Source: an uncultured Clostridia bacterium | Lineage (GTDB): Bacteria; Bacillota; Clostridia; Oscillospirales; Acutalibacteraceae | Length of the DNA: 64,000 nucleotides | Reading direction: 5' to 3' | Assembly (NCBI GenBank): GCA_937892115.1 | Contig: CALAUI010000018.1 | Span: 1,533 to 65,532 of the forward strand | Shown here: positions 8,525-23,549 of the stretch, one piece after another | How positions within the stretch are numbered: the stretch's first letter is position 1 | How the letters are laid out: each line of letters begins with the position of its first letter | Made by a program: the position numbers and the translations under genes | The notes under the pieces: model-generated | Databases searched by the model: none | The model's input: the letters and a program-made list of their open reading frames with translations, nothing else | What the model was told of the DNA's origin: nothing

Positions 8525-9228
8525 TGACGGGCAGGATTCATTCATTCCAGTCCCTCGGCACAGTTGACGGCCCCGGCATAAGAAACGTCGTTTTCATGCA
8601 GGGCTGTCCCCTGCGGTGTGCCTGCTGTCATAACCCCGACACGTGGGACTTTGACGGCGGCGAAGAAATCGAGGCGGATAAGCTCGTTGAGAAAATATCC
8701 CGTTTCCGTTCCTATTTCGGAAGTGAGGGCGGTGTGACCGCCTCCGGCGGAGAGCCCCTCTGTCAGTCGGAATTTCTGACTGAGTTGTTTTCCAAGCTGA
8801 AAAATGCGGGAATAAATACGGCACTTGATACCTCGGGATGTATTTACGGCGAACAGATTGAAAAGCTGCTGGAATATACTGACCTCGTTCTGCTTGACTG
8901 GAAATATGCCGATGCAGAGGATTATCTGCGATACACGAAATGCGACATAGAAAAGGTTGATTTTTTTCTTTCGGAGCTTGAAAAGAAAAATATACCCGTA
9001 TGGATACGCAGAGTAATCATTCCGGGGCTTAACGACGATGAAAGCTCAATGCTTCAGCTGAAATCGTTACGCGAAAAGTACACCTGCATAAAGAAAATCG
9101 AGCTGCTTCCGTTCAGAAAGCTCTGCCTTGAAAAATATCAGTCCATGGGCATTCCCTTTCCCTTTGAAAGCATTCCCGAAGCATCAAAGGCAGATACGGA
9201 AAAACTGGAAGCGGAATTTCTCGGATAA
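8521..9228 (+). CDS. pflA: pyruvate formate-lyase activating enzyme (radical SAM)
   Basis: [26 protein letters not shown] motif. The start overlaps the pflB stop (ATGTGATG). Confidence 0.93.
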
Positions 9229-9233
9229 ACTAT

Positions 9234-9262
9234 CGGCAATCTTCGGATTGCCGTTTTTATTT
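9234..9262 (+). terminator. intrinsic terminator after pflA
   Basis: CGGCAATC-ttcg-GATTGCCG followed by TTTTTATTT. Confidence 0.8.
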
Positions 9263-9330
9263 CGCTTTTATATTGATTTACAGCCCGTAAATATGATACT
9301 TTATACTTAAATTCAGCCGGGAGGAACGTA

Positions 9331-10113
9331 ATGATGAGTATTTCGTTGATTTTTAAGATTATCTCTGCCTGGATAATGAGCATATTCACCGCCTTGGGCA
9401 GTATATCCGGAATGGCGGCGCCTCAAAGCAAAGCCGCTATGATGGCTCACAGAGGATATTCCTTTATGTATCCCGAAAATACGGAGCTTGCCTTTGTTGA
9501 AGCGGCAAAGCACGGTGCAGAGGGTGTGGAAACAGATCTGCGTATCACCAAGGACGGTGTTTACGTACTCAATCACAACGCCGACGTTGTTTTTAACGAC
9601 GGCAGTAAGCTTGTGATTGCAGACAGTACGTATGAGGAGCTTACGGCAAAACCTTTAAGAAACCTCAAGACCTTTGACAAGGTTTATCTCTGTTCCTATG
9701 AAAGATTCCTTGAAGTAATGAAGGAATATGACCTTGAATTCTACATTGAATTTAAGGTGAGTGCAACGGAGGAGCTCATCAGGGACGTTTTTTCAATTGC
9801 AGAGGAAAAATACGACCTTTCAAAATGCATCTACGAATCTCCCCGTATTAACGACCTGATAATCGCAAGAAAGCTTTTCCCGGATATGCCTGCAATGTTC
9901 GTTATCGGCGAGAACGGTATCGACTACGGCAAATGCTTTGAATACAATCTTTCCGCCGATGTCAAATACGGGATAATAACGGAAGAAATGGTAGAGGAGT
10001 TTCACTCAAGAGGGCTTAAAATCGGCTCCTGGACCTGCGACGATCCCTTCACAATCGCCTATTCAAACTCATTGGGTGTGGACTATATCGAATCAAACGT
10101 ATTTTGCAAATAA
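9331..10113 (+). CDS. glycerophosphodiester phosphodiesterase family protein (GDPD), N-terminal membrane anchor/signal
   Basis: AHRGYS..PENT..AF..A...GA.GVETDLRITKDG motif. Hydrophobic N-terminus ISLIFKIISAWIMSIFTALG. RBS is GGGAGGAA. Confidence 0.85.
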   Translation: MMSISLIFKIISAWIMSIFTALGSISGMAAPQSKAAMMAHRGYSFMYPENTELAFVEAAKHGAEGVETDLRITKDGVYVLNHNADVVFNDGSKLVIADSTYEELTAKPLRNLKTFDKVYLCSYERFLEVMKEYDLEFYIEFKVSATEELIRDVFSIAEEKYDLSKCIYESPRINDLIIARKLFPDMPAMFVIGENGIDYGKCFEYNLSADVKYGIITEEMVEEFHSRGLKIGSWTCDDPFTIAYSNSLGVDYIESNVFCK

Positions 10114-10137
10114 AACTTAACGAAACAGAGGAACGCT

Positions 10138-11190
10138 ATGAAAACAGAAGATTTTGATAAAAATTTCCTTGTCGGCACTCCCGACGAAAACGGTCTGTGC
10201 TACATGAACATTACGGAAAAGCCATTTGTCACCTACGGGCTTATGGCTTCCGATAAAAAGGGATATCACAGAATGAATCCCGACGTTGCTGAAAAATGCA
10301 ATGACGGCGTGGCATTTCTCAATTACCATACCGCAGGGGGCAGAGTAAGATTTGCAACCGATTCCGACACGATTTCAATAAAATCGGAATCCGTCTTTAT
10401 GTCAAAGATGCCTCACATGGCATTCACCGGCAGTATCGGCTTTGACTTATACGAAAAGCGTGACAACGAATACGTTTACAGGGGCTCGTTCATTCCCCCC
10501 GTTGATATTGAAGACGGGTACACCTCGTCAATAAACGTAGGTGAAGGCGGAATGAGAGACTATACGGTCAACTTTCCTCTCTACGGCGGCGTAAAGAAGC
10601 TGGAAATCGGTCTTAAAGCCGGCAGTAAGCTTGCGGCGGGCGAAAAATACCGCGATATTCTTCCCGTGGTATATTACGGCTCGTCAATCACTCAGGGGGG
10701 ATGCGCTTCAAGACCCGGAAACGCTTATCAGACGATAGTGACAAGAAAGCTGGATATTGACCATATCAATCTCGGCTTTTCCGGCTCGGCAAAGGCGGAA
10801 AAGGCAATGTGCGACTACCTTGCAGAGCTTGAAATGTCGGTTTTCGTCTGCGACTATGACCACAATGCTCCCACTCTTGAGCATCTGCAGAAGACTCTTC
10901 CCGTGCTGATTGAAACATTCAGGAAGAAACAGCCCGAAACACCGATAATAATGATGTCAAGACCGCAGTGCAGACCCAACGAAGACGAAATTGCAAGGCG
11001 TAATACGGTAAAAAGCGTTTACGAAAGTCAGCTTGCAAAGGGCGATAAAAACATTTACTTTATTGACGGCAGCAAGATTACTCTTTTCTTCGGCGGTGAC
11101 AGTGCAACCGTTGACGGCTCTCATCCGAACGACCTCGGATTCATGTGTATGGCAAAATCCGTATGGGAAGTGCTTGAAAAAATAATATAA
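10138..11190 (+). CDS. SGNH/GDSL-family hydrolase (esterase) with N-terminal beta-rich domain
   Basis: Block I YYGSSITQG and block V DGSHPNDLGF. 350 aa. Confidence 0.8.
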   Translation: MKTEDFDKNFLVGTPDENGLCYMNITEKPFVTYGLMASDKKGYHRMNPDVAEKCNDGVAFLNYHTAGGRVRFATDSDTISIKSESVFMSKMPHMAFTGSIGFDLYEKRDNEYVYRGSFIPPVDIEDGYTSSINVGEGGMRDYTVNFPLYGGVKKLEIGLKAGSKLAAGEKYRDILPVVYYGSSITQGGCASRPGNAYQTIVTRKLDIDHINLGFSGSAKAEKAMCDYLAELEMSVFVCDYDHNAPTLEHLQKTLPVLIETFRKKQPETPIIMMSRPQCRPNEDEIARRNTVKSVYESQLAKGDKNIYFIDGSKITLFFGGDSATVDGSHPNDLGFMCMAKSVWEVLEKII

Positions 11191-11196
11191 GTATAT

Positions 11197-11230
11197 GGCG
11201 GATATTATGAGGATATCCGCCTTTTCTTAT
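11197..11230 (+). terminator. intrinsic terminator
   Basis: GGCGGATAT-tatgagg-ATATCCGCC followed by TTTTCTTATT. Confidence 0.8.
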
Positions 11231-11258
11231 TGATAACCGCGTTCAGTTATGCTATAAT
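11230..11258 (+). promoter_or_regulatory. sigma-A-like promoter
   Basis: TTGATA-17 nt-TATAAT. It leaves only a very short leader before the permease gene. Confidence 0.55.
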
Positions 11259-11278
11259 TTCACAAATTGTTTTTCGGG

Positions 11279-12415
11279 ATGCAAAAAATGACAAAAGTAA
11301 AAGATTTTCTCAAAAAAGATATTATGCTGGTTGTGGCGGTAATCGCCGCAATCGTTTCCCTTTTCATAACAAAACCGAGTATGGCACTGGTGTCCTCCAT
11401 TGACTGGAAAACCCTTGCCACACTTTTTATGCTGCTTTCCGTTCTTGACGGCTTCAAGCACGAAAACCTGTTTCAGCCCCTTATCAATCTTGCGGGCAAA
11501 ATCGGCACACAGACGGGTCTGACATTTTTCCTCGTATTTTCCGTTTTCTTTTCCTCAATGTTCGTGACAAACGACGTGTCGCTTATCATTTTCGTTCCGC
11601 TGACAATTATCCTTTTCCGTGCGGGAGGCAAGGAAAAATACACAATTCCCGTACTTGTACTTGAAAATATTGCGGCTATCCGCGGCTCTCTGCTGACTCC
11701 ATTCGGCAGTCCGCAGAACCTGTTTCTCTATTCGGGAAGCGGTATTCACGCCGTTGATTTTCTCAAAATGATGCTGCCGCTCAATATCGGAAGCGCGGTT
11801 TTGCTGTCAATATTCATTCTGATAATGTACCGCAAAAATCCGAAGGAAAAGATAGGCGGAAGCGAAGAGCTGAATGCAGTATGGGAAAAAGAAGGCAGAG
11901 CGAAAAGAATACTGTATTTTTCTCTTTTCGCAATTATTATTGTCATGATAGTCTCAAGGACTTCACTCTGGCCTTATGTCACCGCTCTGACGGTGATCGC
12001 CCTGCTGATTTTTGACAGAAAAGTATTCCTGAGGGTAGACTATGCTCTTATTTTTACCTTTCTCTGCTTCTTTGTCTTTTCATCCTCCCTTTCCGCAAAT
12101 CCTGCCGTTTCGGAATTTCTCAGAAAGAGCGTGGCAGGCAGGGAATATCTTTGGAGCATTCTCCTCAGCCAGGTGATTTCAAACGTTCCCGCAGCTATAG
12201 TTCTGTGGCCGTTCACCGCCAATCTGAAGGCACTTATATACGGTCTTGATTCCGCGGGACTCTGCTCAATAATCGGCTCTCTGGCATCGGTCATCAATAT
12301 GAGAATATATACAAAGGAATATCCCGGCAACGGTCTGAAATTCATGTGGAAATTTGAAGTCATTTCCCTCGCATTCTTTGCCGTTGTGGTAATTCCCCAG
12401 TATTTTTTAATCTGA
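11279..12415 (+). CDS. anion permease of the ArsB/NhaD (YbiR/CitMHS-like) superfamily
   Basis: Polytopic membrane protein with patterns typical of this superfamily (SMFVTNDVSLIIFVP, LTPFGSPQNL). The start is uncertain (ATG 11279 or 11288, with the track's TTG at 11267) and no clear SD is present. Confidence 0.65.
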   Translation: MQKMTKVKDFLKKDIMLVVAVIAAIVSLFITKPSMALVSSIDWKTLATLFMLLSVLDGFKHENLFQPLINLAGKIGTQTGLTFFLVFSVFFSSMFVTNDVSLIIFVPLTIILFRAGGKEKYTIPVLVLENIAAIRGSLLTPFGSPQNLFLYSGSGIHAVDFLKMMLPLNIGSAVLLSIFILIMYRKNPKEKIGGSEELNAVWEKEGRAKRILYFSLFAIIIVMIVSRTSLWPYVTALTVIALLIFDRKVFLRVDYALIFTFLCFFVFSSSLSANPAVSEFLRKSVAGREYLWSILLSQVISNVPAAIVLWPFTANLKALIYGLDSAGLCSIIGSLASVINMRIYTKEYPGNGLKFMWKFEVISLAFFAVVVIPQYFLI

Positions 12416-12440
12416 ATTAACTCAAAGTGAGGTAGTATAA

Positions 12441-13562
12441 ATGAACAAATACGATATCGCGGCGTTTATCTGGCCCTCCTATACGGGAGACGAAAACAGA
12501 ACGAGGATTTTCTGGCCAGAGGGTTACGGTGAGTGGCAGACGGTCAAGGCAATGACAAACAAGGGCTACGACGGCTGCAGATGGCCCCGCAAGCCCCTCT
12601 GGGGATACGTCAACGAGGCGGACCCCAGGATAATGGAAATGCAGATTCAGTGTGCAGTTGACTACGGTGTAAACACGTTCATCTACGACTGGTACTGGTT
12701 TGATGACCGTCCCTTCCTTGAAAATTGCCTTAACGACGGCTTCCTCAAGGCAAGGAACAACAAGGATATGAAATTCTATCTGATGTGGGCAAACCACGAC
12801 GCCACACATCTGTGGGACAAGCGCAATTCCGCAGACCTTTCAACCGTTATCTGGAAGGGCGCCGTAACTCCCGATATATGGGATAAGATTACGGACCGCA
12901 CCATAGAAAAATACTTTTCAATTGATAATTATTACAAGATTGACGGCTGTCCCGTCTATATGATATTTGACATTGATAATTTTCTCAGAACCTTCGGCAC
13001 AAGCGAAAAAGCAAAAGCGGGGCTTGACCTTTTCAGAGAAAAGACAGTCAAAGCCGGTTTCCCCGGTCTTCACATTCAGATAGTCCACTGGAGAAGGAGA
13101 ACCTATGGCTGGCTTCCCGACGGTGACTCTGCAAAGGGATGTACCATTGAGCAGTTATATTCATTTTTAGGTGCGGATTCCGTTACCAATTACAACTGGG
13201 GCGGCTCGGCAAATCTTGACGGCGATTATTCCGCGATTACCGATGAATATATGGAAAGCATCACAAAGACCGACGGCAATATTTCCATTCCGTATTATCC
13301 CAACATTACAATCGGCTGGGATAATAACGTGAGATTCAACGGCTTCATACCCGGCGTGGTAAAGAACAACACCCCCGAGGCGTTCGGTGAAGCATGCCGC
13401 AGAGTAAAGGAATTTGCAGACAAAAAGCTTGCCGACGGTAAAATGAAGGCACCCCTCATTACGGTCAACAGCTGGAACGAATGGACGGAAACAAGTTATC
13501 TTCAGCCCGACGACCTTTACGGCTACGGATATCTTGAAGAAATAAAGAAAATTTTCGGATAA
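12441..13562 (+). CDS. GH99-like / WbsX-family (Glyco_tran_WbsX) protein
   Basis: N-terminal pattern FIWPSY..FWPEGYGEW..V.....PR.PLWGY....DP..M..Q...A..YGV..F.YDWYWF matches the WbsX/GH99-like signature as I recall it. RBS is GTGAGG. Confidence 0.65.
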   Translation: MNKYDIAAFIWPSYTGDENRTRIFWPEGYGEWQTVKAMTNKGYDGCRWPRKPLWGYVNEADPRIMEMQIQCAVDYGVNTFIYDWYWFDDRPFLENCLNDGFLKARNNKDMKFYLMWANHDATHLWDKRNSADLSTVIWKGAVTPDIWDKITDRTIEKYFSIDNYYKIDGCPVYMIFDIDNFLRTFGTSEKAKAGLDLFREKTVKAGFPGLHIQIVHWRRRTYGWLPDGDSAKGCTIEQLYSFLGADSVTNYNWGGSANLDGDYSAITDEYMESITKTDGNISIPYYPNITIGWDNNVRFNGFIPGVVKNNTPEAFGEACRRVKEFADKKLADGKMKAPLITVNSWNEWTETSYLQPDDLYGYGYLEEIKKIFG

Positions 13563-13573
13563 GGAGATAAATC

Positions 13574-14353
13574 ATGGCAAAAGTAACGGTAGTATTCAAA
13601 ATGATAGGTGCAACAATAGTTGCCCTTTTCACCGCAATCGGCGGTTTATTCGGTTTCGCACCCGAAAGCAGCGTATGTATGATCGCCCACAGAGGATATT
13701 CGGGCTCATATCCCGAAAACACGGAGCTTGCCTTCGTTGAAGCGGCAAAGCACGGCTCAGGCGGAGCCGAAACCGACGTACGTATGACCAAAGACGGCGT
13801 TTACGTGCTCAGTCATAACAGCAGTGCGGTAATGGAAGACGGCACGGAAATGGCTATCGCAGATTACACCTACGAGGAGCTTACGGCTCAGCCCCTCAAA
13901 AATAAAAAAACAGACGATAAGGTATATCTCTGCACCTTCAAAAGATACCTTGAGGTAATGAAGGAAAACGATATGGTCTGCTTCATTGAGCTCAAAGGCG
14001 ATTTCACAAAGGAACAGGTTAAAGAAATTTTCACTATCGCAGAAGAAACCTACGACCTTTCGAAGTGCATCCTGCAGTCCTTTGAATTTGACAATCTCAT
14101 TTCAGCCCGTGAGCTTTTCCCCGACCTTCCCCTTATGCTGACGTACGGCTACGGCGACGGCGATTATTCCAAGTGCTTTGAATACGGCATTTCCATAGAT
14201 GCGGAGTATTGGGCAATTACAGATGAAATGGTAAAGGAATTTCACGATAACGGTCTTGAGGTAGGTGCCTGGACCGCAAACATTTATCCCGTTATTGCTT
14301 TCTGCAAATCCGCGGGAGTTGACTATATTGAATCCGACGTATACGGCGGCTGA
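13574..14353 (+). CDS. glycerophosphodiester phosphodiesterase family protein (GDPD), paralogue of 9331-10113
   Basis: IAHRGYSGSYPENTELAFVEAAKHGSGGAETDVRMTKDG motif, the same length, and the same hydrophobic N-terminus. RBS is AAGGAG. Confidence 0.85.
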   Translation: MAKVTVVFKMIGATIVALFTAIGGLFGFAPESSVCMIAHRGYSGSYPENTELAFVEAAKHGSGGAETDVRMTKDGVYVLSHNSSAVMEDGTEMAIADYTYEELTAQPLKNKKTDDKVYLCTFKRYLEVMKENDMVCFIELKGDFTKEQVKEIFTIAEETYDLSKCILQSFEFDNLISARELFPDLPLMLTYGYGDGDYSKCFEYGISIDAEYWAITDEMVKEFHDNGLEVGAWTANIYPVIAFCKSAGVDYIESDVYGG

Positions 14354-14371
14354 AAATATATTGAAATAAGA

Positions 14372-14412
14372 ATCCGGCAGAGCAATCTGTCGGATTTTTG
14401 CTTTTATTTTTA
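14372..14412 (+). terminator. intrinsic terminator
   Basis: ATCCGGCAGA-gcaa-TCTGTCGGAT followed by TTTTTGCTTTTATTTTT. Confidence 0.8.
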
Positions 14413-14426
14413 TAAAGTTTGCAATA

Positions 14427-14455
14427 TTGATTTTACTGTATTTATGTTTTATAAT
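14427..14455 (+). promoter_or_regulatory. sigma-A-like promoter
   Basis: TTGATT-17 nt-TATAAT, 29 nt upstream of ATG 14484. Confidence 0.55.
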
Positions 14456-14483
14456 GGACTAAATATGTGTTAGGAGGTAGATT

Positions 14484-15383
14484 ATGGCAGTCTGTCCCAG
14501 ATGCGGTCATAAACTGCACATTTATGACTGGAAACCGAATTGCCCCGGATGCGGCGTAAATATGGTCTACTATAATTCCAACGAACGCCTGCTGGCGGAA
14601 ACAGAGGCATCGGAAATAGAGCATGCCCGCTTTCAGCCGAAGGTTGACAGAGCAAAAGCATCCACCATCGGCTCACCCATTACGTGGGTAAGACTCGTCT
14701 GCTCCGTGCTTGTGCTGGCGGTATTCCTCATAGTTCCCCTTGCAAAGGTCAATTTTACCCTTCCCGTTTCGGGAAAGGTCGACGTAACCATGACAGGTCT
14801 GAATTTCTTTACCTTTGTAACCGGGATCGACGCCACCGCCCTTATGGCAATGCTGGGTGTGAAGGTCTTTAAGAAAGCATTGATATTCCTTGCAATATCG
14901 GTTGTAACTCTCGCGCTGTCGGTCGTGTGGATTTTTGTCAGTCTGATTGCGCTCGTTGCTTCTCTCGGTCCCAAGGGCAAGCAGAGAAATATATTCAACC
15001 ACTCCTTCCAGATAGTTCTTACGGTTATCAGCGCCGTTTTCTTTACCCTGTTTTCTTCAAATATGGCTCTTGCCCTGCCCTATGAAGGAAGTCTCGGTTG
15101 GGGCGTTGCAGTTTATCTCTTATTCTTCTTTATCCTGCTGGCTATTGACATTATTACCGCAGTAAAGGGCATTGAAGTAAAATATACTCCCTGCTTCATC
15201 GGCGGTATTCCCGGCGACGAATATTTCAAAATGGTCGAAGAGGGCGTAAGCGAGCTTGAAATCCGCAAAAAGATGGTTGATATTCTCACCGTCATGCAGG
15301 AGGAATTCAGGGCACGCGATGCCGAAGCCAGAGCAAAAGCCGCGGCTGAGGAAGAAGAAAGACGAAGCAGGAGGAAAAAGTAA
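14484..15383 (+). CDS. zinc-ribbon-containing polytopic membrane protein, function unknown
   Basis: N-terminal CPRCG..(14)..CPGCG, then about 5-6 hydrophobic helices and a Lys/Glu/Arg-rich C-terminal tail. RBS is TAGGAGG. The stop overlaps the next start (TAATG). Confidence 0.65.
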   Translation: MAVCPRCGHKLHIYDWKPNCPGCGVNMVYYNSNERLLAETEASEIEHARFQPKVDRAKASTIGSPITWVRLVCSVLVLAVFLIVPLAKVNFTLPVSGKVDVTMTGLNFFTFVTGIDATALMAMLGVKVFKKALIFLAISVVTLALSVVWIFVSLIALVASLGPKGKQRNIFNHSFQIVLTVISAVFFTLFSSNMALALPYEGSLGWGVAVYLLFFFILLAIDIITAVKGIEVKYTPCFIGGIPGDEYFKMVEEGVSELEIRKKMVDILTVMQEEFRARDAEARAKAAAEEEERRSRRKK

Positions 15384-16963
15384 TGGACGACAGAATTTAT
15401 ACTCCTGAAGAGCAAAACGAACTGAACGAGATCAATGGCAAGCTTCGTGAGCTTGTTGACGTTGACAGACGCGTAATCTCCCGCAAAGAAACGATTTCCT
15501 ATATTCTTTTCAACAGTGCAAAGGGCTTCAACATTGACGGCCATAAGGATCTGTTTACCGACTCTATCCTTCATATCGGCTTCAATTTCCAGTCAATCAA
15601 CAACGCTCTCGGCAGCGTATGGGATATACTTGACGATTTCCTCGTTGCATTCGTAGTTGAAAAGACAAGAACAAGATGGGGCAAATTCGTTCCCTATATA
15701 TTCCTCGGCGGTATTCCCTTTGCCCTGCTTTCCGCTCTGTGGTGGCTCATTCCCCTTTTCTTTTCCCCGGAACAGCTTGCAAATACGGAATATGTTCCCA
15801 AATTCGTACTGAGTCTTGTCATCGGTCTTATCATGGAGCTTGTAGGCAATTTCAGAGACGTTTCCATAGGCGGATTCGTTTCCACCATTACCCCCTACGC
15901 ATCCGACAGACGAAGACTGCTGGCGATTTCGGACTATGTTAATATCATCGCTTCCCGTATTCCCGACCTTATTATTGAGTTTACACTCGACTTTATCAAG
16001 AACGGACTTGTCAAGGTCACAAACGGTACGGATGCAATGATAAAGAAATCACTTATGATAATGGGTCCCACCACGGCGCTTATCGGCGGCGTATTCATCG
16101 CCTGGTACTCAACCGTTGCAAAAGAAAGAGTACATCAGAAGATTGAAAAGCCCAAAATCAAAGAAAGTCTTAAAATCGTATTCTCCAACAGACCCATACT
16201 CATGTATATGCTCTCAAATGCACTCGGCTCATTCGGAACGGGTCTTTCCACCAACGACTATTACCGTCAGGTACTCAATATGACTACCTTTGAAACCATA
16301 GCGGGCATTCCCTCATTTTTCTTCCAGCCCATCGGTTTCTCACAGTACAACAAGGTTGCGGAGAAATATTCCACAAAGAGTCTGTATATGATTTCTCAGG
16401 TATTCGCAAAGACGTTTTATATTCCTCTCTGGTTTTACGGCAGATTCATTCATTCAAAGGACGGAAAATACTTCTTCCAGGGCAGGATTCCCATGCTTCC
16501 CGTTACGGCAATATGGGAATGCATCTATGCTACATGGTGGGGTATCAGGACGATATCCATCACGGAAATCAGCAATGAATGCAACGACTACATCGAGTGG
16601 AAATGCGGTTACCGCAACGAAGCAACCCTTTCGGTTGCAAGCACCTTTATATGTAAGATTCCCGGCCGTATAAACGGCATCCTTCAGCCGCAGCTGAGGA
16701 AGTGGATAAATTACGACCAGACCGCCTACACCGAGGGCAGAGAACAGCCCCTGAAGGCACAGAAATGGATATTCGCAATGGCTACGCTTATCCCCGCAAT
16801 TCTCGTTCTTTCAAGTATGATTCCCATGTTCTGGTACAATATTGACAAGGACACCCGCGACAGAATGTACCGTGAGCTTAACGAGAGAAGAACTCTCATG
16901 GCAAAGAAAATCAATATGGAAGCTGACGGCGTTTCCGAAGAAGCAGCCGTTACAGAAGCGTGA
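15383..16963 (+). CDS. GPH-family (MelB-like glycoside-pentoside-hexuronide) MFS symporter
   Basis: Signature DILDDFLVAFVVEKTRTRWGKFVPYIF and about 12 hydrophobic segments. RBS AGGAGGAAAAAG lies inside the upstream gene. Confidence 0.75.
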   Translation: MDDRIYTPEEQNELNEINGKLRELVDVDRRVISRKETISYILFNSAKGFNIDGHKDLFTDSILHIGFNFQSINNALGSVWDILDDFLVAFVVEKTRTRWGKFVPYIFLGGIPFALLSALWWLIPLFFSPEQLANTEYVPKFVLSLVIGLIMELVGNFRDVSIGGFVSTITPYASDRRRLLAISDYVNIIASRIPDLIIEFTLDFIKNGLVKVTNGTDAMIKKSLMIMGPTTALIGGVFIAWYSTVAKERVHQKIEKPKIKESLKIVFSNRPILMYMLSNALGSFGTGLSTNDYYRQVLNMTTFETIAGIPSFFFQPIGFSQYNKVAEKYSTKSLYMISQVFAKTFYIPLWFYGRFIHSKDGKYFFQGRIPMLPVTAIWECIYATWWGIRTISITEISNECNDYIEWKCGYRNEATLSVASTFICKIPGRINGILQPQLRKWINYDQTAYTEGREQPLKAQKWIFAMATLIPAILVLSSMIPMFWYNIDKDTRDRMYRELNERRTLMAKKINMEADGVSEEAAVTEA

Positions 16964-16974
16964 AGGAGAAAATT

Positions 16975-17883
16975 ATGGACAGATATCTGATTATCAACGC
17001 CGATGATTTCGGTATGTGCAGAGGGGCAAATCTCGCAGTTATGGATTTGCTCACGGACAAGGACAGCGCTCTTACGTCATCAACGGTCATGACCCCCTGC
17101 GCCTGGGCACCCGAGGCGTGTCAGTTTGCAAACAAGCATCCTGAGCTTGCCATCGGTGTACACCTGACGTTTACAAGCGAATGGTCAAAATACAGATGGG
17201 CTCCCGTTAATACGAGCAACACCGATTCCCTGCGTGACGGCGAGGGCTTCATGTTCCATGAAAGCGATGAATTTGAAAAGAACGCAAACGTTGAGGAAGT
17301 AATCGGTGAAATCAAGGCACAGGTTGCAAGGTGTAAAGTACTTGGCCTTGACAATCCCTCACATCTTGACAATCACATGGGCTCGCTTTACGGCATTGAA
17401 ACCGGCAGATTCGAGCTGCTTCAGGCAACCCTCGGTGTCTGCGGTGAGCTTGGTCTTCCTTTCCGTCTTCCTTCAAAAATTACAGCGGAAATGTTCTCAA
17501 ATTCAATGCTTGAAATAAACATTGACGCAAACATGGTCAATGCTGCATTCGGTCAGATTACCGGCTATGCAGACAGTCTCAGAGTAGCTCTGCCCGATTA
17601 TCTCATTCCCAACGAATGGGGCGGACCGCAGGACGAAAGCTACGAAAGCTTCAGGGAATATCTGCTGACAATGTATGCGAATATGCCCGAGGGCATCACC
17701 GAAACCTATCTTCATCCCTCACTTGAGACCGATGACCTGAAAGGTACGTCTTCGGTATGGTGGAGAAGAACGTGGGAATACAAGGTAATGAAGGACCCCG
17801 CAACAAAGCAGCATCTTGAAGCCCACAACATTCAGCTTATCAATTACCGTGACCTTGCCAAGATGAGAGGTTACGCAAAATAA
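16975..17883 (+). CDS. YdjC/ChbG/HpnK-family carbohydrate de-N-acetylase
   Basis: N-terminal LIINADDFGM motif. Start set at ATG 16975 after AAGGAG (the track's GTG 16960 overlaps the upstream stop). Confidence 0.8.
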   Translation: MDRYLIINADDFGMCRGANLAVMDLLTDKDSALTSSTVMTPCAWAPEACQFANKHPELAIGVHLTFTSEWSKYRWAPVNTSNTDSLRDGEGFMFHESDEFEKNANVEEVIGEIKAQVARCKVLGLDNPSHLDNHMGSLYGIETGRFELLQATLGVCGELGLPFRLPSKITAEMFSNSMLEINIDANMVNAAFGQITGYADSLRVALPDYLIPNEWGGPQDESYESFREYLLTMYANMPEGITETYLHPSLETDDLKGTSSVWWRRTWEYKVMKDPATKQHLEAHNIQLINYRDLAKMRGYAK

Positions 17884-17893
17884 TAACCGATTT

Positions 17894-17921
17894 CAGCCGA
17901 CAGTAATCTGCCGGCTGTTTT
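17894..17921 (+). terminator. weak internal hairpin / partial terminator
   Basis: CAGCCGACAG-taat-CTGCCGGCTG (one mismatch) followed by only TTTT. No promoter is visible before the next gene. Confidence 0.35.
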
Positions 17922-17936
17922 GAAAGAGGAAGCACT

Positions 17937-18794
17937 ATGAAACCATGGATGAAAGATATCGGCGACAGCACGCTGATATCCGATATCAATATCCCCGGCA
18001 CCCACGACTCGTGTGCAAGGCACGTGGCACTGCATCATTTGACGAAGTGCCAAAATAAATATATTTCAGAGCTTCTTGATATGGGTGTCAGATTATTTGA
18101 CATACGCATACGCAAGCAAGATGATAATATTATCATTGTTCACGCGGTAATAGTATGTAAAAAATCCCCGTTCGGAAAGCCGATTCTTTTTGATGACGTA
18201 CTTGATGCCTGCCGTGATTTTCTGGAGAAAAATCCCTCCGAGACCGTTATCCTCAGCATCAAGAGAGACAGCGGCGATGACGACATAAGCACATTCAGAT
18301 TCTTTTACGAAAAATTCGTCAGAGGAAATCCCATCTGGTACACCGGCGCTTCAATCCCCACTCTCGGTGAGGTGAGAGGAAAGCTTGTACTTTTCAACAG
18401 AAACCGCACGGAAAATCTTGATAAAAACGAGGCAGGACTTGACTTCGGCTCGTGGGAGGAAATGAGCAAGGAGGAAATCGGAAATCCGGTTTTCAGAAAG
18501 TTCCCTCTGACGGGAGAAGAATTCGTCATCCAGGATTTATTCAAATCCCATCCTGCCGACAAATGGAAGGCCGCTTCATCCCTGATGGATATGTTTCTTC
18601 CCGAAAAGCTGCTGGCGGTAAACTTCCTGTCCGGCAACGACACTATCCACTCTCCGCGTGTTTATTCACGGTATATCAACCGCAAATTCATGAATTATCC
18701 CTTTACGAAGGGTAAGAAATACGGCTGGTTTTTACTTGATTTCGCAAATCCCGCGCTCGTTGAAAAAATAACGGATTCAAATAAGAGGAAATAA
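17937..18794 (+). CDS. PI-PLC X-domain (PLC-like phosphodiesterase) protein, no signal peptide
   Basis: NIPGTHDS and RLFDIRIR...IIVHA contexts resemble the bacterial PI-PLC catalytic His regions. RBS is AAGAGGAAG. Confidence 0.75.
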   Translation: MKPWMKDIGDSTLISDINIPGTHDSCARHVALHHLTKCQNKYISELLDMGVRLFDIRIRKQDDNIIIVHAVIVCKKSPFGKPILFDDVLDACRDFLEKNPSETVILSIKRDSGDDDISTFRFFYEKFVRGNPIWYTGASIPTLGEVRGKLVLFNRNRTENLDKNEAGLDFGSWEEMSKEEIGNPVFRKFPLTGEEFVIQDLFKSHPADKWKAASSLMDMFLPEKLLAVNFLSGNDTIHSPRVYSRYINRKFMNYPFTKGKKYGWFLLDFANPALVEKITDSNKRK

Positions 18795-18796
18795 AA

Positions 18797-20563
18797 ATGG
18801 CAAATAAAAAGAAATGCGGCTGCGGTTACAGTCCCCTTGTAATCCTGCCGGGTATAAATCATTCCCCCACTCATCTCTACGATGAAAACGGAAAACGCGC
18901 TCTCAACAGCAAGGGCAGGGAAATAGGGGGAACTCTGGTATTCCTGAACACCGACGAAGTAAAAAAGATGCTCCCGCGGCTGGGTGCAGCGGCTCTGGGA
19001 ACGGTTATCACACAATGTGACTGCGGCTTTAAGAAAACGGTTTACGATACCGCCTGCAAAGCGTTTTCATATCAGAAATGCGACTGTAACGGCGATTTCA
19101 TCAACAATCTCAAAACCGAAAGATGGTACTATCCCATAAAAGAAATGGATGCGGACAGAATCGCGTGGGCATACCGGATGGTACCTATGAAGGCCCTCAC
19201 GAACGTTATCGGTGAAGACCACGCTTACTTTTTCACCTTCAATCTCGTAGGCGATCCGATGGATTCCGCAAGAGAACTGAATGATTTTATTCAGATGGTA
19301 AAGGAACAGACGGGACACGATAAGGTCAATCTCCTGCCCGTAAGTCTGGGCGGCACCATTCTCACCGCATATATGGATTCCTACGGCAAAGCAAACAACT
19401 ACGCCGATATCGATATGATAGTCAACACGGTTGCCTGCCTTGACGGTACGGAAATCGTGGGAGATATGTTTGAAAGACGGTTCAATACAAGCGACAGATA
19501 TCTTCATCACGAGTTTATTCCCGCCATATTAAAAGAGGAAACGGGAAACGCAACTGAAGGATACATAGCAAACTGTCTGCTCCACCTTTTCCCGCAGAAA
19601 AGCTTCAATGCCGTATTTTCGGAATTTATCAGCGGAATGCTTGATACAATAATGATAAACTGCCCTCAGATATGGGCTATGCTTCCCTCATACAGATACG
19701 ATGCCATTGCGCAGAGATATCTCGCGGATTCTTCAAAAGCAAAATTGAAGGAGAGAACGGACCGTTTCCAGCAGGCACGTCTTAATCTGAAGCAGAATCT
19801 TCTTGACGCGGCGGATGCGGGAGTAAAAATAAACAGTATCGCCGGCTCAAATATCAATTTCGGCGATATTCAGTATTCCATGTTCGGAGCAATCAAATCG
19901 TTTGATAGATTCAATTCCGATGGCATTATCAATCTCAGCTCCACTACTCTCGGCGCAACGGGTGCCCCGAATTATCAGACGCTTCCCGAAGGATACGAAC
20001 AGCAGAATCATAAAGAAATCAACTATATTTCACCCGACGGCAGAATAGATGCCTCAACCGCACTTTTACCCGAGCATACGTGGATCTTCCTCAATCAGCA
20101 TCACGAGGTGGGCAACAACGACGTCGTACTGAATCTTGCAAAGGCAATACTTACGGGGGAAGTGAATTCCGTTCACGACGACCCCGAAAAATATCCGCAG
20201 TTCAACGGCACCTGCAACACAAGACATCTCAGAAGATGGCGCCTTCCCGACGGTGAGAAAGCACTTACCGATATTAAATCGGGAGTCCTTGCCTGCTCTG
20301 AATTTGTCCTCACGGAGCTTGAATCGGCAGTTGAAGCAGGCAAAGCCGTCCTCGCCTCCACCGTTGCGGACAGCAAAAAAGCACAGAAGGCAAAAGCCGA
20401 TCTTGAAGCCGTACTTCAGAAGCTGGGCAGATTTACTCCCGACAGAGAGATGACGGAAAAAGAAAAGGCAAAGGAAAAGAAAGCCGAAAAGGCAAGTGAA
20501 TTTCTCCTTAAAGCTCTCGGCGGCGGCAGTGTGACAGACAGATTATTAAGAAGAACAAAGTAA
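18797..20563 (+). CDS. LCAT/PGAP1-like alpha/beta-hydrolase (putative lipase/acyltransferase), cytoplasmic paralogue
   Basis: PLVILPGI and the nucleophile context LLPVSLGGT. Homologous by eye to 41840-43393, with shared Y(I/L)SPDG.IDAST. No signal peptide. Lys/Glu-rich C-terminal tail. Confidence 0.6.
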   Translation: MANKKKCGCGYSPLVILPGINHSPTHLYDENGKRALNSKGREIGGTLVFLNTDEVKKMLPRLGAAALGTVITQCDCGFKKTVYDTACKAFSYQKCDCNGDFINNLKTERWYYPIKEMDADRIAWAYRMVPMKALTNVIGEDHAYFFTFNLVGDPMDSARELNDFIQMVKEQTGHDKVNLLPVSLGGTILTAYMDSYGKANNYADIDMIVNTVACLDGTEIVGDMFERRFNTSDRYLHHEFIPAILKEETGNATEGYIANCLLHLFPQKSFNAVFSEFISGMLDTIMINCPQIWAMLPSYRYDAIAQRYLADSSKAKLKERTDRFQQARLNLKQNLLDAADAGVKINSIAGSNINFGDIQYSMFGAIKSFDRFNSDGIINLSSTTLGATGAPNYQTLPEGYEQQNHKEINYISPDGRIDASTALLPEHTWIFLNQHHEVGNNDVVLNLAKAILTGEVNSVHDDPEKYPQFNGTCNTRHLRRWRLPDGEKALTDIKSGVLACSEFVLTELESAVEAGKAVLASTVADSKKAQKAKADLEAVLQKLGRFTPDREMTEKEKAKEKKAEKASEFLLKALGGGSVTDRLLRRTK

Positions 20564-20604
20564 AAAAACAGCTTCGGGCTCTTGCTCGAAGCTGTTGTGT
20601 TTTA
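20561..20604. terminator. bidirectional intrinsic terminator
   Basis: ACAGCTTCG..CGAAGCTGT stem flanked by an A-run (left) and TGTGTTTTATT (right). It sits between convergent genes. Confidence 0.75.
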
Positions 20605-21522
20605 TTATTCAAAGAGAGGGTTTTCAGGTGAATAAATCCTGATTGCCTTTTTCTTAACGGAAAATTCGATTTCCTTGGGATTTCCGCCGTATTCACCGTC
20701 AAGAGTCCATTCCTCGGGTTTCTCAAGGAAAGTGATTTTGATGTTATCTGCCTTTACGAAGATAAGATTTTCATCCTCGTAATTACCTTTAAGAACGTTT
20801 ATAAGCAGGGGAATTGCCTGAAGTGCCTTGAAATTCTTGACTATAAGCAGCTCAAATTTGCCGTCGTTAAGTACAATTTTCTGTCCTTCAAACTTGAAAA
20901 GACCTGCGACCGACGTTGAGTTTGAAATGGCACCGTAGTGAGCGCCGCCCTCGAATACCTTGCCGTCATATTCGATTCTTACCTTCTTGGGTCTTAACTG
21001 CATAAGAAGGGGGATTGACTGACAGACGAATCCGTTGATCATATATGCGGAATATCCGAGTTTGTTCTTCCACTTCTGATTTGTTGCATATGCAATTGAC
21101 GAGCCGGGGCCGAAGCAGGCAACATAGTTGAAATATCTGTCGTTGAACTGACCGATATCGTATTCGTTGGTGTGGCCTTCCATAATGGTTTTGACTGCGT
21201 CATAATAATGGGGAGGAATACCCAGAGTATTGGCAAAATCATTGGTTGAGCCCATCGGAATATATCCTACGGGGATATCAAGACCTGCCTTGCTGATACC
21301 GTTTACCACCTCGTTGAGTGTTCCGTCACCACCGCATGCAACGATAAAATCATAGCCGGCGGCTTTGTCCTTTGCCGCGTTAACGGCATCACCTGTTCCC
21401 GTAGTCTGATACAAAGTTACCTCGTATTCCTTAGGAGGAAAACTTCTCTCGATTGCCAAAGGCGAGGGTCTTGTTGAATCCTTGCCTGCAACGGGATTGT
21501 AGATGATCAAAACTTTCTTCAT
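20605..21522 (-). CDS. diacylglycerol/lipid kinase (DagK/YegS family)
   Basis: MKKVLIIYNPVAGK and ACGGDGTLNEVVNG motifs. Confidence 0.88.
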   Translation of the reverse strand: MKKVLIIYNPVAGKDSTRPSPLAIERSFPPKEYEVTLYQTTGTGDAVNAAKDKAAGYDFIVACGGDGTLNEVVNGISKAGLDIPVGYIPMGSTNDFANTLGIPPHYYDAVKTIMEGHTNEYDIGQFNDRYFNYVACFGPGSSIAYATNQKWKNKLGYSAYMINGFVCQSIPLLMQLRPKKVRIEYDGKVFEGGAHYGAISNSTSVAGLFKFEGQKIVLNDGKFELLIVKNFKALQAIPLLINVLKGNYEDENLIFVKADNIKITFLEKPEEWTLDGEYGGNPKEIEFSVKKKAIRIYSPENPLFE

Positions 21523-21548
21523 TTGTGCTGACTCCTCTGAAACTGTGT

Positions 21549-22394: not shown

Positions 22395-22406
22395 AATTGT
22401 TTCTCC

Positions 22407-23444: not shown

Positions 23445-23549
23445 TTTTCTTCCTCCTGAAACATAGTGATTGATATTTTAACACATTTTGCCCCGAATGT
23501 CTATATACAAAATTCTTTTTTGATAATAATTATTATTTTTTGATAAATA

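Follow-up and report, generated by a model that had tools for sequence, protein, structure and literature searches.

The locus described here raises the question of whether eleven adjoining genes constitute a single pathway or separate operons that have come to lie side by side. The genes are found in a window of 64,000 nucleotides (the whole stretch of DNA analysed) from an uncultured bacterium of the Acutalibacteraceae (Oscillospirales). In the initial annotation, they were interpreted as one glyco-phospholipid head-group salvage system, in which cleavage by two GDPDs would be followed by import, de-acylation, de-acetylation and diester cleavage, and finally by recycling through DagK. The open reading frames, ten co-directional genes and a convergent DagK gene, were found exactly where they had been placed, as were the terminators and both promoters (Table 1). 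The family assignments were likewise borne out, save for an "LCAT-like" lipase. A literature search returned no characterised utilisation locus matching the block, in line with the earlier statement that no characterised pathway with this gene set is known.

Table 1. Genes and regulatory features of the block; positions are counted from the first letter of the window.
Feature	Position	Strand	Characteristics and evidence
Hairpin terminator	9234..9253	both	8-bp stem, 5 GC pairs; 3' of PFL-activase gene, left boundary of unit A
GDPD1, glycerophosphodiester phosphodiesterase, N-terminal membrane anchor	9331..10113	+	Pfam GDPD, 86.7 bits
SGNH esterase, signal-less, GxDLY N-domain and Lipase_GDSL_3	10138..11190	+	Pfam, 134 and 99.8 bits
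Terminator-like hairpin	11197..11221	+	End of unit A; consensus scan
Promoter-like site, unit B	11230..11258	+	TTGATA-17-TATAAT, TG extended -10; 11/12 matches, best of the region
CitMHS / ArsB-NhaD-superfamily anion permease	11267..12415	+	About 9 or more TM (hydropathy); Pfam CitMHS, 92.3 bits
Cytoplasmic GH99-like Glyco_tran_WbsX protein	12441..13562	+	Pfam, 144 bits
GDPD2, membrane-anchored glycerophosphodiester phosphodiesterase	13574..14353	+	Pfam GDPD, 102.8 bits; PDB GDPDs, 3e-16
Terminator-like hairpin	14367..14400	+	End of unit B; consensus scan, sequence
Promoter-like site, unit C	14427..14455	+	TTGATT-17-TATAAT; 10/12; consensus scan, sequence
ZnTM	14484..15383	+	C4 zinc ribbon, amphipathic helix, four-helix TM bundle, extracytoplasmic beta-strands, conserved C-terminal domain (predicted)
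Divergent MFS_2/GPH transporter	15383..16963	+	Pfam MFS_2, 98.7 bits; apparently coupled translationally to ZnTM and YdjC
YdjC-family (ChbG-like) carbohydrate de-N-acetylase, cytoplasmic	16960..17883	+	Pfam YdjC, 174.9 bits
Weak hairpin	17894..17918	+	AGCCG...CGGCT, then GTTTTG; between YdjC and PI-PLC genes; read from sequence
Signal-less bacterial-type PI-PLC homolog, full TIM barrel	17937..18794	+	Pfam PI-PLC-X, 50 bits
ABH588, signal-less lipase-like alpha/beta-hydrolase, 588 aa	18797..20563	+	Weak Pfam alpha/beta-hydrolase matches only
Strong hairpin	20567..20596		13-bp stem, 7 GC pairs; common to convergent ABH588 and DagK genes
DagK/YegS-type lipid kinase	20605..21522	-	Pfam DAGK_cat, 113.6 bits

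The block is punctuated into three units, A (GDPD1, SGNH), B (permease, WbsX, GDPD2) and C (ZnTM to ABH588). A consensus scan placed terminator-like hairpins on the left of unit A, at the ends of units A and B, and between ABH588 and DagK, where a bidirectional terminator had been proposed; the top two plus-strand promoter-like sites of the block precede units B and C. As the totals of such sites are not above those of shuffled sequences, it is their placement in the three intergenic gaps that counts. Between 14484 and 20563, the scan found no strong terminator, and stop and start codons overlap at 15383 and 16960-16963 or are spaced by 3 nt (18794/18797), an arrangement that fits translational coupling. 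The weak hairpin reported earlier at 17894 is absent from the scan output and visible on inspection of the sequence, and is a possible attenuating or processing site.

The block stays together only in three near-identical Acutalibacteraceae contigs (84-99% amino acid identity). The whole block recurs only in locus L002, with a split SGNH gene, while L003 holds the rest without GDPD1; unit A thus already varies at this distance. The part from GDPD2 to DagK is present in L166 (ZnTM 84%) and that from GPH to DagK in L001. Elsewhere, WbsX orthologs (72-77% identity) have genomic neighbours unrelated to the block, and 78 of the 80 genome loci with a PI-PLC homolog hold no other block gene in conserved order; these unrelated contexts argue against a co-conserved eleven-gene system. 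Co-conservation of one integrated system therefore largely failed for units A, B and DagK, and a single salvage pathway appears distinctly improbable. Its enzyme set is coherent in theme, the block is kept wholly or in part in L002, L003 and L166, a GDPD gene lies 3' of a ZnTM homolog in L159, and phosphoesterases are repeatedly found near the ZnTM-MFS_2 pair. However, synteny at 84-99% identity carries no functional information, and the units are set apart by three terminator/promoter pairs. Moreover, if the PI-PLC cleaves a soluble head group that has already been de-acylated, no diacylglycerol would be set free for DagK. The individual substrates named for this pathway earlier (teichoic acid, GIPC, GPI) are conjectural.

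DagK itself belongs to a separate, convergent operon that also encodes an aldose epimerase and a secreted phosphoesterase of the Metallophos family, and its synteny with block genes is confined to the near-identical L001, L002, L003 and L166; its inclusion in the pathway is accordingly not upheld. Kinases of the DgkB type are classically linked to lipoteichoic-acid turnover. This link, the membrane anchors of the GDPDs, and the many Acutalibacteraceae in which PI-PLC homologs lie beside polysaccharide-synthesis genes (Bac_transf, CapD-like dehydratase and GT1, in 13-29 loci) would suit a role in the biosynthesis or remodelling of cell-envelope glycolipids or teichoic acids, with the MFS_2 protein flipping or exporting a glycolipid or phospho-glycan and the enzymes trimming precursors. 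We regard such a role as very improbable: the polysaccharide-synthesis neighbourhoods all belong to a single family and may simply be inherited, Pfam searches of the block revealed no glycosyltransferase, polymerase or LtaS-type gene, and catabolic glycosidases are attached to the transporter pair in relatives.

The two GDPDs are paralogs (57% identity) that both contain the HR..E..D..H motifs and a single N-terminal hydrophobic segment (residues 4-22), which agrees with the anchoring proposed earlier; hydropathy revealed no hydrophobic N-terminus in the SGNH, WbsX, YdjC, PI-PLC and ABH588 proteins. In both GDPDs, the N-terminal region gives a weak match to the model for the S. aureus lysophosphatidylglycerol phospholipase D, an enzyme described previously (PMC10404611). 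The anchors recall membrane-associated GDPDs, and the position of GDPD catalytic domains beside an anion permease recalls GlpQ/UgpQ scavenging with GlpT/Ugp. Unlike these systems and the S. aureus enzyme, the GDPDs score far under every NCBIfam equivalog cut-off, and the block contains neither a GlpT or Ugp transporter nor a glycerol-3-phosphate dehydrogenase; it instead pairs a GDPD with a GH99-like protein, a pairing not conserved elsewhere. The SGNH esterase matches an uncharacterised protein (PDB 4lhs, 1.7e-38) and, weakly, SsfX3. The WbsX protein is extremely conserved, with more than 7000 homologs, the top 120 of which are all at least 70% identical, and its AF2 model resembles 5ngw and GH99 endo-alpha-mannanases (TM about 0.55). 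Owing to this GH99-type fold, the earlier statement that the block lacks a canonical glycoside hydrolase needs qualification. Units A and B can be described as phosphodiester- and ester-scavenging genes thematically compatible with unit C, but a mechanistic tie between them is not supported by the evidence.

Unit C opens with ZnTM, which matches no Pfam family beyond sub-threshold generic zinc ribbons (CPxCG...CPxCG), and no consistent Pfam domain was found across its 217 homologs. Its initial description as a zinc-ribbon polytopic membrane protein agrees with the invariance of C4, C7, C20 and C23 in the homolog alignment and with a predicted four-helix TM bundle (AF2 model, pLDDT 87.5). In a Foldseek search, the top match was LetA (E 3.4e-3, probability 0.99), followed by TARPs, claudins and DUOXA1; TARPs and claudins are also the reported structural neighbours of the LetA module, which consists of a Zn ribbon and a tetraspan TMD (PMC13017536). 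The TM-scores to LetA are low (0.20-0.24), and neither sequence similarity to LetA or PqiA nor a PqiA Pfam match was detected; the resemblance of the model to one LetA module is weak. ZnTM is predicted to share with such a module a cytoplasmic C4 zinc ribbon, a four-helix TM bundle and extracytoplasmic beta-strands. In contrast to the two-module LetA/PqiA proteins of Proteobacteria (PMC13017536), ZnTM has one module, occurs in monoderm Clostridia with an MFS_2 transporter rather than an MCE protein as partner, and carries an additional conserved C-terminal domain and a coiled coil. Any role assigned to it is putative.

The partner transporter (about 525 aa) scores well over the Pfam MFS_2 threshold, and its top named NCBIfam models are gph, the glucuronide transporter and MelB; it nevertheless falls far under every curated equivalog or subfamily cut-off (e.g., TIGR00792, 107.5 bits against 231), and PDB matches to MelB and MFSD2A are weak and limited to N-terminal fragments. 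Unlike MelB, UidB and MFSD2A, it carries at its N-terminus a conserved cytoplasmic extension of about 70 residues, and it has a dedicated Zn-ribbon partner gene, which, to our knowledge, is not seen with characterised GPH/MFS_2 members. In a sample biased toward the contigs that the searches returned, ZnTM lies near MFS_2 in 13 of 18 informative lineages and is directly adjacent on the same strand in 10; its distant-branch homologs lie in neighbourhoods unrelated to the block. The cargo of this cassette varies: GH92, GH130-like and beta-lactamase-family genes in L162, GH29, SASA and GH42 in L167, that of the window in L166, and none in L163, L164 and L175. In addition, PAP2 adjoins the pair in L173, and short Zn-ribbon-only ORFs can replace ZnTM beside GPH, so that its TM part is dispensable for the association.

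Given the lone and PAP2-adjacent pairs and the LetA-like model, a lipid substrate fits as well as a glycoside. The cassette could then acquire lipids or lysolipids, with ZnTM as a single LetA-like module that takes up amphiphilic lipids (e.g., lyso-PI or lyso-glyco-inositol-phospholipids of plant or fungal membranes) together with an MFSD2A-like MFS_2 protein; the cytoplasmic PI-PLC, the lipase-like hydrolase and DagK would dismantle and recycle them, and the anchored GDPDs would serve as membrane-bound enzymes of the lysophospholipase D type. The Foldseek neighbours, the weak matches to MFSD2A and to the S. aureus phospholipase D, and the lipid-related neighbours (PI-PLC, lipase-like hydrolase, DagK and GDPD in the window, PAP2 in L173) all point this way. 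Lipid acquisition is nonetheless rather unlikely in view of the low TM-scores, the missing sequence similarity to LetA or PqiA, the single module without MCE partner, the Zn-ribbon-only ORFs, the narrow confinement of DagK synteny, the GH92, GH130, GH29, GH42, GH4 and GH3 genes joined to the pair in relatives, and a PI-PLC that lacks interfacial tryptophans for membrane binding.

The last point follows from comparison of the PI-PLC homolog with secreted enzymes such as B. cereus/B. thuringiensis PI-PLC, S. aureus Plc and Listeria PlcA. It shares their single-domain TIM barrel over its full length (profile match to PDB PI-PLCs, 6e-49; 30% identity to the B. cereus enzyme over residues 4-283). 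H23, D55, R57, H69, R155, D200 and D268 are invariant among its homologs, and equivalents of H32, D33, D67, R69, H82, K115, R163, D198 and D274 are retained, as is an aromatic residue at 200. Judged from the alignment, the catalytic set (base/acid His, Arg69, Asp33/67/274) and the inositol-contacting set (Lys115, Arg163, Asp198) are complete, and the earlier description of a signal-less X-domain protein with both catalytic histidines stands. Unlike the secreted toxins and virulence factors, it belongs to a signal-less clade formed with its 27 closest homologs, its gene sits within a predicted uptake operon, and the equivalents of W47 and W242, which serve interfacial membrane insertion, are replaced. 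The loss of these residues and the lack of a signal peptide argue for a soluble cytoplasmic substrate. The YdjC protein matches PDB 8jqe (3.7e-25) and ChbG (7vi8); it accompanies ZnTM and GPH in L149, and its linkage to the cassette is confined to close relatives (at least 83% identity). For ABH588 (1009 representative clusters), the LCAT-like label was rejected: there is no Pfam LCAT match, and among solved structures it comes nearest to LipA/PhaZ7/Burkholderia-type lipases, with similarity around the nucleophile elbow only. Its triad, Ser183-Asp375-His436, is invariant, and nearly all homologs carry signal peptides.

Members of unit C re-associate in other lineages and orders, which supports its earlier interpretation as an uptake and cytoplasmic-processing operon. 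The order hydrolase-ZnTM-GPH is found in L094, where the hydrolase is also signal-less, and PI-PLC-GPH in L045. In L040, L041, L042, L043, L046 and L065, the hydrolase gene directly precedes and overlaps that of PI-PLC; its L040-type copies carry signal peptides, so the two proteins may work in different compartments there. The order PI-PLC-GH4-unknown-PHP-GPH-Zn-ribbon ORF occurs in L044, L057 and L069 and would fit a phosphorylated glycoside being imported and then cleaved inside the cell; in L044, the only one of these contigs to extend further, the operon continues with Metallophos and MBL genes. These re-associations bear on whether the unit C enzymes simply happen to lie next to a transporter cassette of general use and serve unrelated processes, as might be suggested by the frequently solitary pair, by cargo that differs in every lineage and by PI-PLC homologs located mostly elsewhere. 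Such independence is quite improbable, however, because the genes re-associate repeatedly and independently, coding regions overlap or nearly abut with no strong terminator between them, and the hydrolase signal peptide is lost specifically in transporter-linked copies.

We therefore favour, tentatively and at somewhat less than an even chance, the view that unit C, within a region of three independently inherited operons, takes up a glycoside or inositol compound with a phosphodiester linkage and degrades it in the cytoplasm. The layout, in which cytoplasmic trimming enzymes come after a transporter, is that of Gram-positive oligosaccharide utilisation operons; a YdjC/ChbG-type deacetylase also occurs in the chb operon, and related cassettes elsewhere are accompanied by GH92, GH130, GH29, GH42 and GH4 genes. 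Unit C differs from such operons in lacking a PTS/ABC system, regulator, kinase and classical glycosidase, and in having phosphodiesterase- and lipase-type enzymes instead. Since it holds neither a classical glycosidase nor a sugar kinase, a glycoside substrate is suggested by its relatives only; transport direction, substrate class and reaction order are likewise what we infer.

From the perspective of the organism, the region would represent a lineage-specific juxtaposition of three operons on the chromosome of a herbivore-gut Acutalibacteraceae bacterium, rather than one conserved pathway, with unit C as its functional core. ZnTM and the coupled MFS_2/GPH symporter would form a two-gene cassette importing a glycoside-like solute; the cytoplasmic enzymes appended to it differ from genome to genome. 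Those of this lineage, the YdjC de-N-acetylase, the signal-less PI-PLC and the signal-less lipase-like hydrolase, would dismantle in the cytoplasm a phosphodiester-linked glycoside or head group that probably contains inositol and is probably N-acetylated or acylated. The reproducible core of the block is thus an undescribed membrane protein with a zinc ribbon, together with its sugar-type transporter partner.

The gene boundaries proposed in the initial annotation for the eleven-gene block at 9331-21522 were all reproduced in the ORF list, and most of its family calls were recovered in Pfam and NCBIfam scans, the exception being an LCAT-like label for the 588-aa protein (see the table below). 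A consensus scan placed terminator-like hairpins at 9234, 11197, 14367, and 20567 and the best promoter-like sites at 11230 and 14427, within intergenic gaps, in keeping with the proposed punctuation; the weak hairpin at 17894 can likewise be seen in the sequence. An Rfam search of positions 8500-24600 at a permissive threshold detected no riboswitch or leader and returned two chance-level hits on terminator hairpins. From hydropathy, each GDPD has the single N-terminal anchor ascribed to it, and no signal peptide was found in the PI-PLC homolog or the 588-aa hydrolase (ABH588), as had been stated, nor in SGNH, WbsX, or YdjC.

Coordinates of the features discussed, in the window unless a locus handle (L, fetched locus carrying homologs of block genes) is given
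Feature	Position	Strand	Basis or remark
GtaA-type six-hairpin protein	3271-5169	+	DUF4964/DUF5127 domains; further upstream of block
PFL-family glycyl-radical enzyme and activase	6161-9228	+	Directly upstream of block
GDPD1 phosphodiesterase	9331-10113	+	Pfam GDPD, 86.7 bits (cut-off 23.6)
SGNH esterase, GxDLY N-domain	10138-11190	+	Pfam
CitMHS/ArsB-NhaD-type permease	11267-12415	+	Pfam
Glyco_tran_WbsX protein	12441-13562	+	Pfam
GDPD2 phosphodiesterase	13574-14353	+	Pfam GDPD, 102.8 bits (cut-off 23.6)
ZnTM, family-less, CPxCG...CPxCG zinc ribbon	14484-15383	+	ORF list, Pfam scan
MFS_2/GPH transporter	15383-16963	+	Pfam MFS_2, 98.7 bits (cut-off 27)
YdjC deacetylase	16960-17883	+	Pfam, 174.9 bits (cut-off 29.7)
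PI-PLC-X protein	17937-18794	+	Pfam, 50 bits (cut-off 23.1)
588-aa protein (ABH588)	18797-20563	+	Pfam, weak alpha/beta-hydrolase matches only
DAGK_cat kinase (DagK), convergent	20605-21522	-	Pfam
Secreted Metallophos phosphoesterase	22407-23444	-	In DagK operon
DpnII-type cassette	28708-31489	+	Dam-like D12 methyltransferase, DpnII endonuclease, second N6/N4 methyltransferase
Secreted ABH588 paralog, 525 aa	41840-43417	-	Profile E 8.9e-69; classic signal peptide
YhhN-family (lysoplasmalogenase-type) membrane protein	50208-50897	+	
Site lacking GDPD1, horse-faeces MAG	L003:1412-2220		SGNH directly after PFL activase
SGNH as two ORFs	L002:2204-3256		Frameshift or assembly error
PF00144 copy	L162:8525-9694		
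PF00144 copy	L163:9027-9887	-	
PF00144 copy	L167:7433-8689		
Short Zn-ribbon ORF	L044:6653-6856		
Short Zn-ribbon ORF	L057:7789-7992		
Short Zn-ribbon ORF	L069:13663-13848		

The components are mostly from well-known families. GDPD1 and GDPD2 are paralogs (57% identical) that score 52-68 bits against the GlpQ, UgpQ, and LpgD equivalogs, whose cut-offs lie at 251-450; YdjC matches 8jqe, 2i5i, and 7vi8 in the PDB and does not reach equivalog cut-offs. Together with SGNH, these proteins are clear family members that fall far below any equivalog threshold, and the transporter of the block is also far below every equivalog cut-off (TIGR00792, 107.5 bits against 231). The earlier statement that no pathway with this gene set has been characterised agrees with our literature search, which found no characterised locus of this composition. 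No characterised equivalent turned up for WbsX/PF14307/GH99-like proteins, 8JQE, or 5NGW, nor for operons with an intracellular PI-PLC, the breakdown of GIPC by gut bacteria, or phospholipases of Acutalibacteraceae; several of these queries gave irrelevant matches alone. Outside the block, the window carries core chromosomal genes (rpoBC, tuf/fusA, and a shikimate operon) plus a DpnII restriction-modification cassette, which lies in a low-GC island (0.375-0.384 vs ~0.46) and was probably acquired horizontally.

The block had been read as a candidate salvage system. In PI-PLC-anchored synteny over 80 loci (one genome per GTDB species, 10-kb flanks), the neighbourhood was common only to the close relatives L002 and L003 (87-99% amino acid identity), and the block genes were not found in the other 78, where the PI-PLC is 31-46% identical. 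Exact or near-exact copies lie in MAGs labelled Acutalibacteraceae or Clostridia, L003 coming from horse faeces, and many related loci derive from ruminant and other herbivore guts. The full block is restricted to relatives with at least 84% amino acid identity, DagK is adjacent only in L001, L002, L003, and L166, and the contexts of PI-PLC, ZnTM, and WbsX elsewhere differ. Unit A (GDPD1 and SGNH) already varies in the closest relatives, GDPD1 being absent from L003 and the SGNH gene split in L002. By co-conservation, the yardstick that the initial annotation itself had proposed, the eleven genes do not form a co-inherited locus. On comparison of these sequences, the block breaks up into modules: ZnTM-GPH is met again elsewhere, as is PI-PLC paired with the hydrolase or with GPH, but units A and B and DagK are not; a fully integrated eleven-gene pathway is, in our estimate, quite unlikely. 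The commonest PI-PLC neighbours in the 78 loci are a CapD-like dehydratase, GT1, a Bac_transf sugar transferase, and mnmE. Such polysaccharide-synthesis and housekeeping neighbours were considered as functional partners and set aside in favour of family-level descent, and a role of the block in envelope biosynthesis is regarded as very improbable.

Unit B (CitMHS permease, WbsX, and GDPD2) was rejected as a conserved module because WbsX contexts elsewhere lack CitMHS or GDPD partners. None of the orthologs at 72-77% identity stands beside either gene; they adjoin FtsEX/PcsB, GH28/GDSL, or MutY/nitroreductase genes. The family has more than 7000 homologs, the best 120 cluster representatives being at least 70% identical, and the WbsX alignment contains well over 100 invariant columns. 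WbsX is thus a strongly constrained, predicted cytoplasmic enzyme, and its neighbours differ completely between genomes (L168, L169, L171, and L172). A PDB sequence search gave no match, and relatives came instead from a fold search: the AF2 model, of mixed confidence (pLDDT 75.6), has a predicted GH99-type (beta-alpha)8 fold (Foldseek, 5ngw, E 2e-9), with matches to GH99 endo-alpha-mannanases at E ~1e-8 to 1e-7 and overall TM scores of 0.50-0.58. The description of the block as free of canonical glycoside hydrolases thus needs correcting for WbsX. Between them, units A and B supply the surface GDPDs, the anion permease, and two cytoplasmic enzymes, SGNH and the GH99-like protein; they may feed on related phosphodiester polymers, though they are inherited independently.

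A recurring part of the block is found at the head of unit C (ZnTM, MFS_2/GPH, YdjC, PI-PLC, and ABH588). In intermediate relatives, the ZnTM gene is directly followed by an MFS_2 gene (~525 aa), usually with overlapping stop and start, and the partner carries the same distinctive N-terminal extension as the window transporter. What comes next varies with the locus. The pair precedes YdjC, PI-PLC, and the hydrolase in L166 (ZnTM 84% identical), as in the window; GH92, a GH130-like gene, and a beta-lactamase-family hydrolase in L162 (70%); and GH29, a beta-lactamase-family gene, SASA, and GH42 in L167 (49%). It stands by itself in L163 (49%) and in L164/L165 (48%), the latter with Metallophos and PHP genes close by; ZnTM is followed by MFS_2 in L175, and the two genes are divergent in L173, with a PAP2 phosphatase between them. 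After dereplication at 80% identity, 18 lineages were informative. In 13 of them an MFS_2 homolog lies within 3.5 kb of ZnTM, in 10 cases as its immediate same-strand neighbour, and ZnTM is unlinked in the other five, one of them an abundant human-gut species. ZnTM-anchored metagenome synteny covered 80 loci, 57 of which belong to one human-gut species. A distant branch in human-gut assemblies (~43% identity, YYGMEERLL motif) has no MFS_2 link, a FabG-like SDR and an unknown 287-aa protein always lying upstream (L091, L093, and L095-L098 among the 57 loci). Since ZnTM is next to the SDR and unlinked to GPH in these 57 loci, the family has an unlinked branch. Because linkage holds in 13 of 18 lineages with differing downstream genes, the ZnTM-MFS_2 pair, judged by gene order, acts like a portable transporter unit that each lineage combines with enzymes of its own. 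The ZnTM family and its regular association with a single MFS_2 subfamily are apparently new elements. A PF00144 beta-lactamase-family serine hydrolase adjoins the pair in three otherwise different neighbourhoods.

For ZnTM itself, 217 homologs can be detected, and Pfam assigns no domain to them consistently; generic zinc-ribbon matches occur in 37 of 38 aligned members, every one below its cut-off. Mean column identity is 52%, C4, C7, C20, and C23 are invariant in the 38 sequences, and an E..H..Q..DR helix and a C-terminal C.IGG.P..EYF...G.SE.EIR motif are conserved. The AF2 model built from these sequences is confident (pLDDT 87.5) and runs from the zinc ribbon through a long helix, TM1, an extracytoplasmic beta-hairpin with short helices, TM2, TM3, a short beta-strand, and TM4 to a small domain at the C-terminus with another long helix. 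Foldseek gave no PDB match at E <=1e-3; the best match was LetA of the E. coli lipid-transport complex LetAB (E 3.4e-3, probability 0.99, TM 0.20-0.24), with TARPs, claudins, and DUOXA1 next (TARP/claudin TM <=0.46, target-normalised). In the definition given for LetA, a module has a cytoplasmic zinc ribbon and then a tetraspan TM domain that bears an extracytoplasmic beta-sheet, and its structural neighbours are likewise TARP and claudin; LetA modules are widespread in Proteobacteria, with MCE proteins as partners (PMC13017536). Like LetA/PqiA, ZnTM has a cytoplasmic C4 zinc ribbon before its TM domain. The model of ZnTM has a predicted tetraspan topology with extracytoplasmic beta-strands. 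Unlike LetA/PqiA, it has one module (LetA has two), is partnered by MFS_2 rather than an MCE protein, and belongs to a monoderm host. Membership of LetA/PqiA by sequence was rejected, the ZnTM profile having no LetA/PqiA match in the PDB or Pfam. Because the model architecture and Foldseek neighbours resemble those of LetA, ZnTM looks like a single LetA-type module, which we treat as a structural lead, not as family membership.

This LetA-like fold also bears on the main rival to our reading of unit C, namely that its genes import and recycle amphiphilic inositol lipids. A weak similarity of GPH to MFSD2A and the lipid-enzyme neighbours (PAP2, DagK, and the lipase-like hydrolase) point the same way, and we consider this account unlikely. 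A more specific version, in which ZnTM is a true, highly diverged LetA-type module that monoderm Clostridia have recruited and that forms with the MFS_2 symporter a hitherto unrecognised two-component importer of amphiphilic inositol-phospho-glycolipid fragments (such as plant GIPC/PI-derived lyso-lipids), to be broken down in the cytoplasm by PI-PLC, hydrolase, and YdjC, seems rather improbable.

Among the unit C enzymes, the PI-PLC homolog is the best defined. A profile of 40 homologs matched 25 PI-PLC chains in the PDB (E 6e-49 to 4e-45, profile positions 4-289), the S. aureus, B. cereus, and Listeria structures being matched whole-length; the homology to B. cereus-type PI-PLC thus spans the full single-domain (beta-alpha) barrel. 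In pairwise alignment, it is 30% identical over residues 4-283 to the B. cereus sequence, whose numbering agrees with the ranges of the PDB profile alignment. The B. cereus functional residues are catalytic His32/His82, Arg69, and Asp33/67/274 and inositol-binding Lys115, Arg163, Asp198, and Tyr200. The window protein keeps equivalents of His32, Asp33, Asp67, Arg69, His82, Lys115, Arg163, Asp198, and Asp274, and Tyr200 aligns to F202 (Phe for Tyr); H23, D24, D55, R57, H69, K109, R155, D200, and D268 are invariant or nearly so in the 40 homologs. The alignment thereby bears out the earlier observation that both catalytic-His contexts are present, H23 and H69 being the predicted equivalents.

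Bacterial PI-PLCs convert phosphatidylinositol or GPI to diacylglycerol and inositol cyclic phosphate, and W47 and W242 of the Bacillus enzyme are membrane-inserting interfacial tryptophans. In contrast to that enzyme, the window protein has T and I at these positions and no N-terminal hydrophobic segment, and it begins where the secreted enzymes begin once mature. Signal peptides are lacking in all 27 of its closest homologs, and more distant ones have a signal peptide or TM anchor. These features lead us to infer that the enzyme works in the cytoplasm, on an inositol-phosphate diester that is soluble; a signal-less PI-PLC clade embedded in predicted uptake operons is a new element.

ABH588 belongs to a family of ~1000 representative clusters, nearly all with classic signal peptides. 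Its Ser-Asp-His triad, S183 (VSLGG), D375, and H436, does not vary across 43 sequences. Its detectable likeness to solved structures is confined to the G-x-S-x-G nucleophile elbow (LipA, PhaZ7, and Burkholderia lipases), this region aligning to LipA at E 8e-9. The LCAT-like label was dropped: PF02450 is matched by neither the window protein nor any of the 43 family members, and the PDB profile matches include no LCAT or LPLA2. Because the paralog encoded near a D-2-hydroxyacid dehydrogenase and a HAD phosphatase has a signal peptide, the genome encodes both a secreted and a signal-less copy.

These enzymes also re-associate. A profile-based search of all fetched loci, followed by maps and Pfam scans, found a hydrolase-family gene directly upstream of, and overlapping, a PI-PLC homolog in six loci (L040, L041, L042, L043, L046, and L065), hydrolase-ZnTM-GPH in L094 (this hydrolase, too, lacks a signal peptide), ZnTM-GPH-YdjC in L149, and PI-PLC-GPH beside a divergent GH3 in L045. 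In L044, L057, and L069, a tight operon comprises PI-PLC, GH4, a 154-aa unknown, a PHP phosphoesterase, GPH, and, directly 3' of GPH, a 61-67-aa ORF; Metallophos and MBL come next in L044, whose contig alone extends further. This short ORF comprises only a ZnTM-type zinc ribbon and an amphipathic helix, so that the ribbon can apparently occur apart from the membrane domain and, for this reason, looks like a cytoplasmic, transporter-associated part. The independent rearrangements are the chief ground for proposing a common substrate for PI-PLC, hydrolase, GPH, and the Zn-ribbon protein, and the rearranged gene sets suggest one with both a phosphoester and a glycosidic bond. A pure coincidence of neighbours appears improbable beside these recurrences.

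We tentatively prefer, as a quite possible reading, unit C as an uptake-and-processing operon for a phosphodiester-carrying, glycoside-like solute. ZnTM and MFS_2 would bring in the solute; in the cytoplasm, YdjC would take off an N-acetyl group, the PI-PLC-like enzyme would cut an inositol-phosphate diester, and ABH588 would remove an acyl ester.

Whatever the substrate, the ZnTM family, with >200 homologs and no model in Pfam, is apparently undescribed as a regular companion of one MFS_2 subfamily, as is its candidate kinship to the newly described LetA fold. If the LetA-module importer were real, the LetA family would no longer be confined to MCE systems and to bacteria with two membranes, and a first route by which gut bacteria catabolise inositol-lipid head groups would be at hand. 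Plant, fungal, and bacterial envelopes are rich in inositol- and glycerol-phosphate-linked glycans, yet phospholipase C, GIPC, and glycerophosphoinositol go unmentioned in a 2025 review of inositol metabolism in the gut (PMC12482443). If the preferred reading of unit C holds, herbivore-gut Oscillospirales would have a cytoplasmic PI-PLC branch wired to a dedicated importer, which would point to the catabolism of inositol- or glycerol-phosphate-linked glycans.
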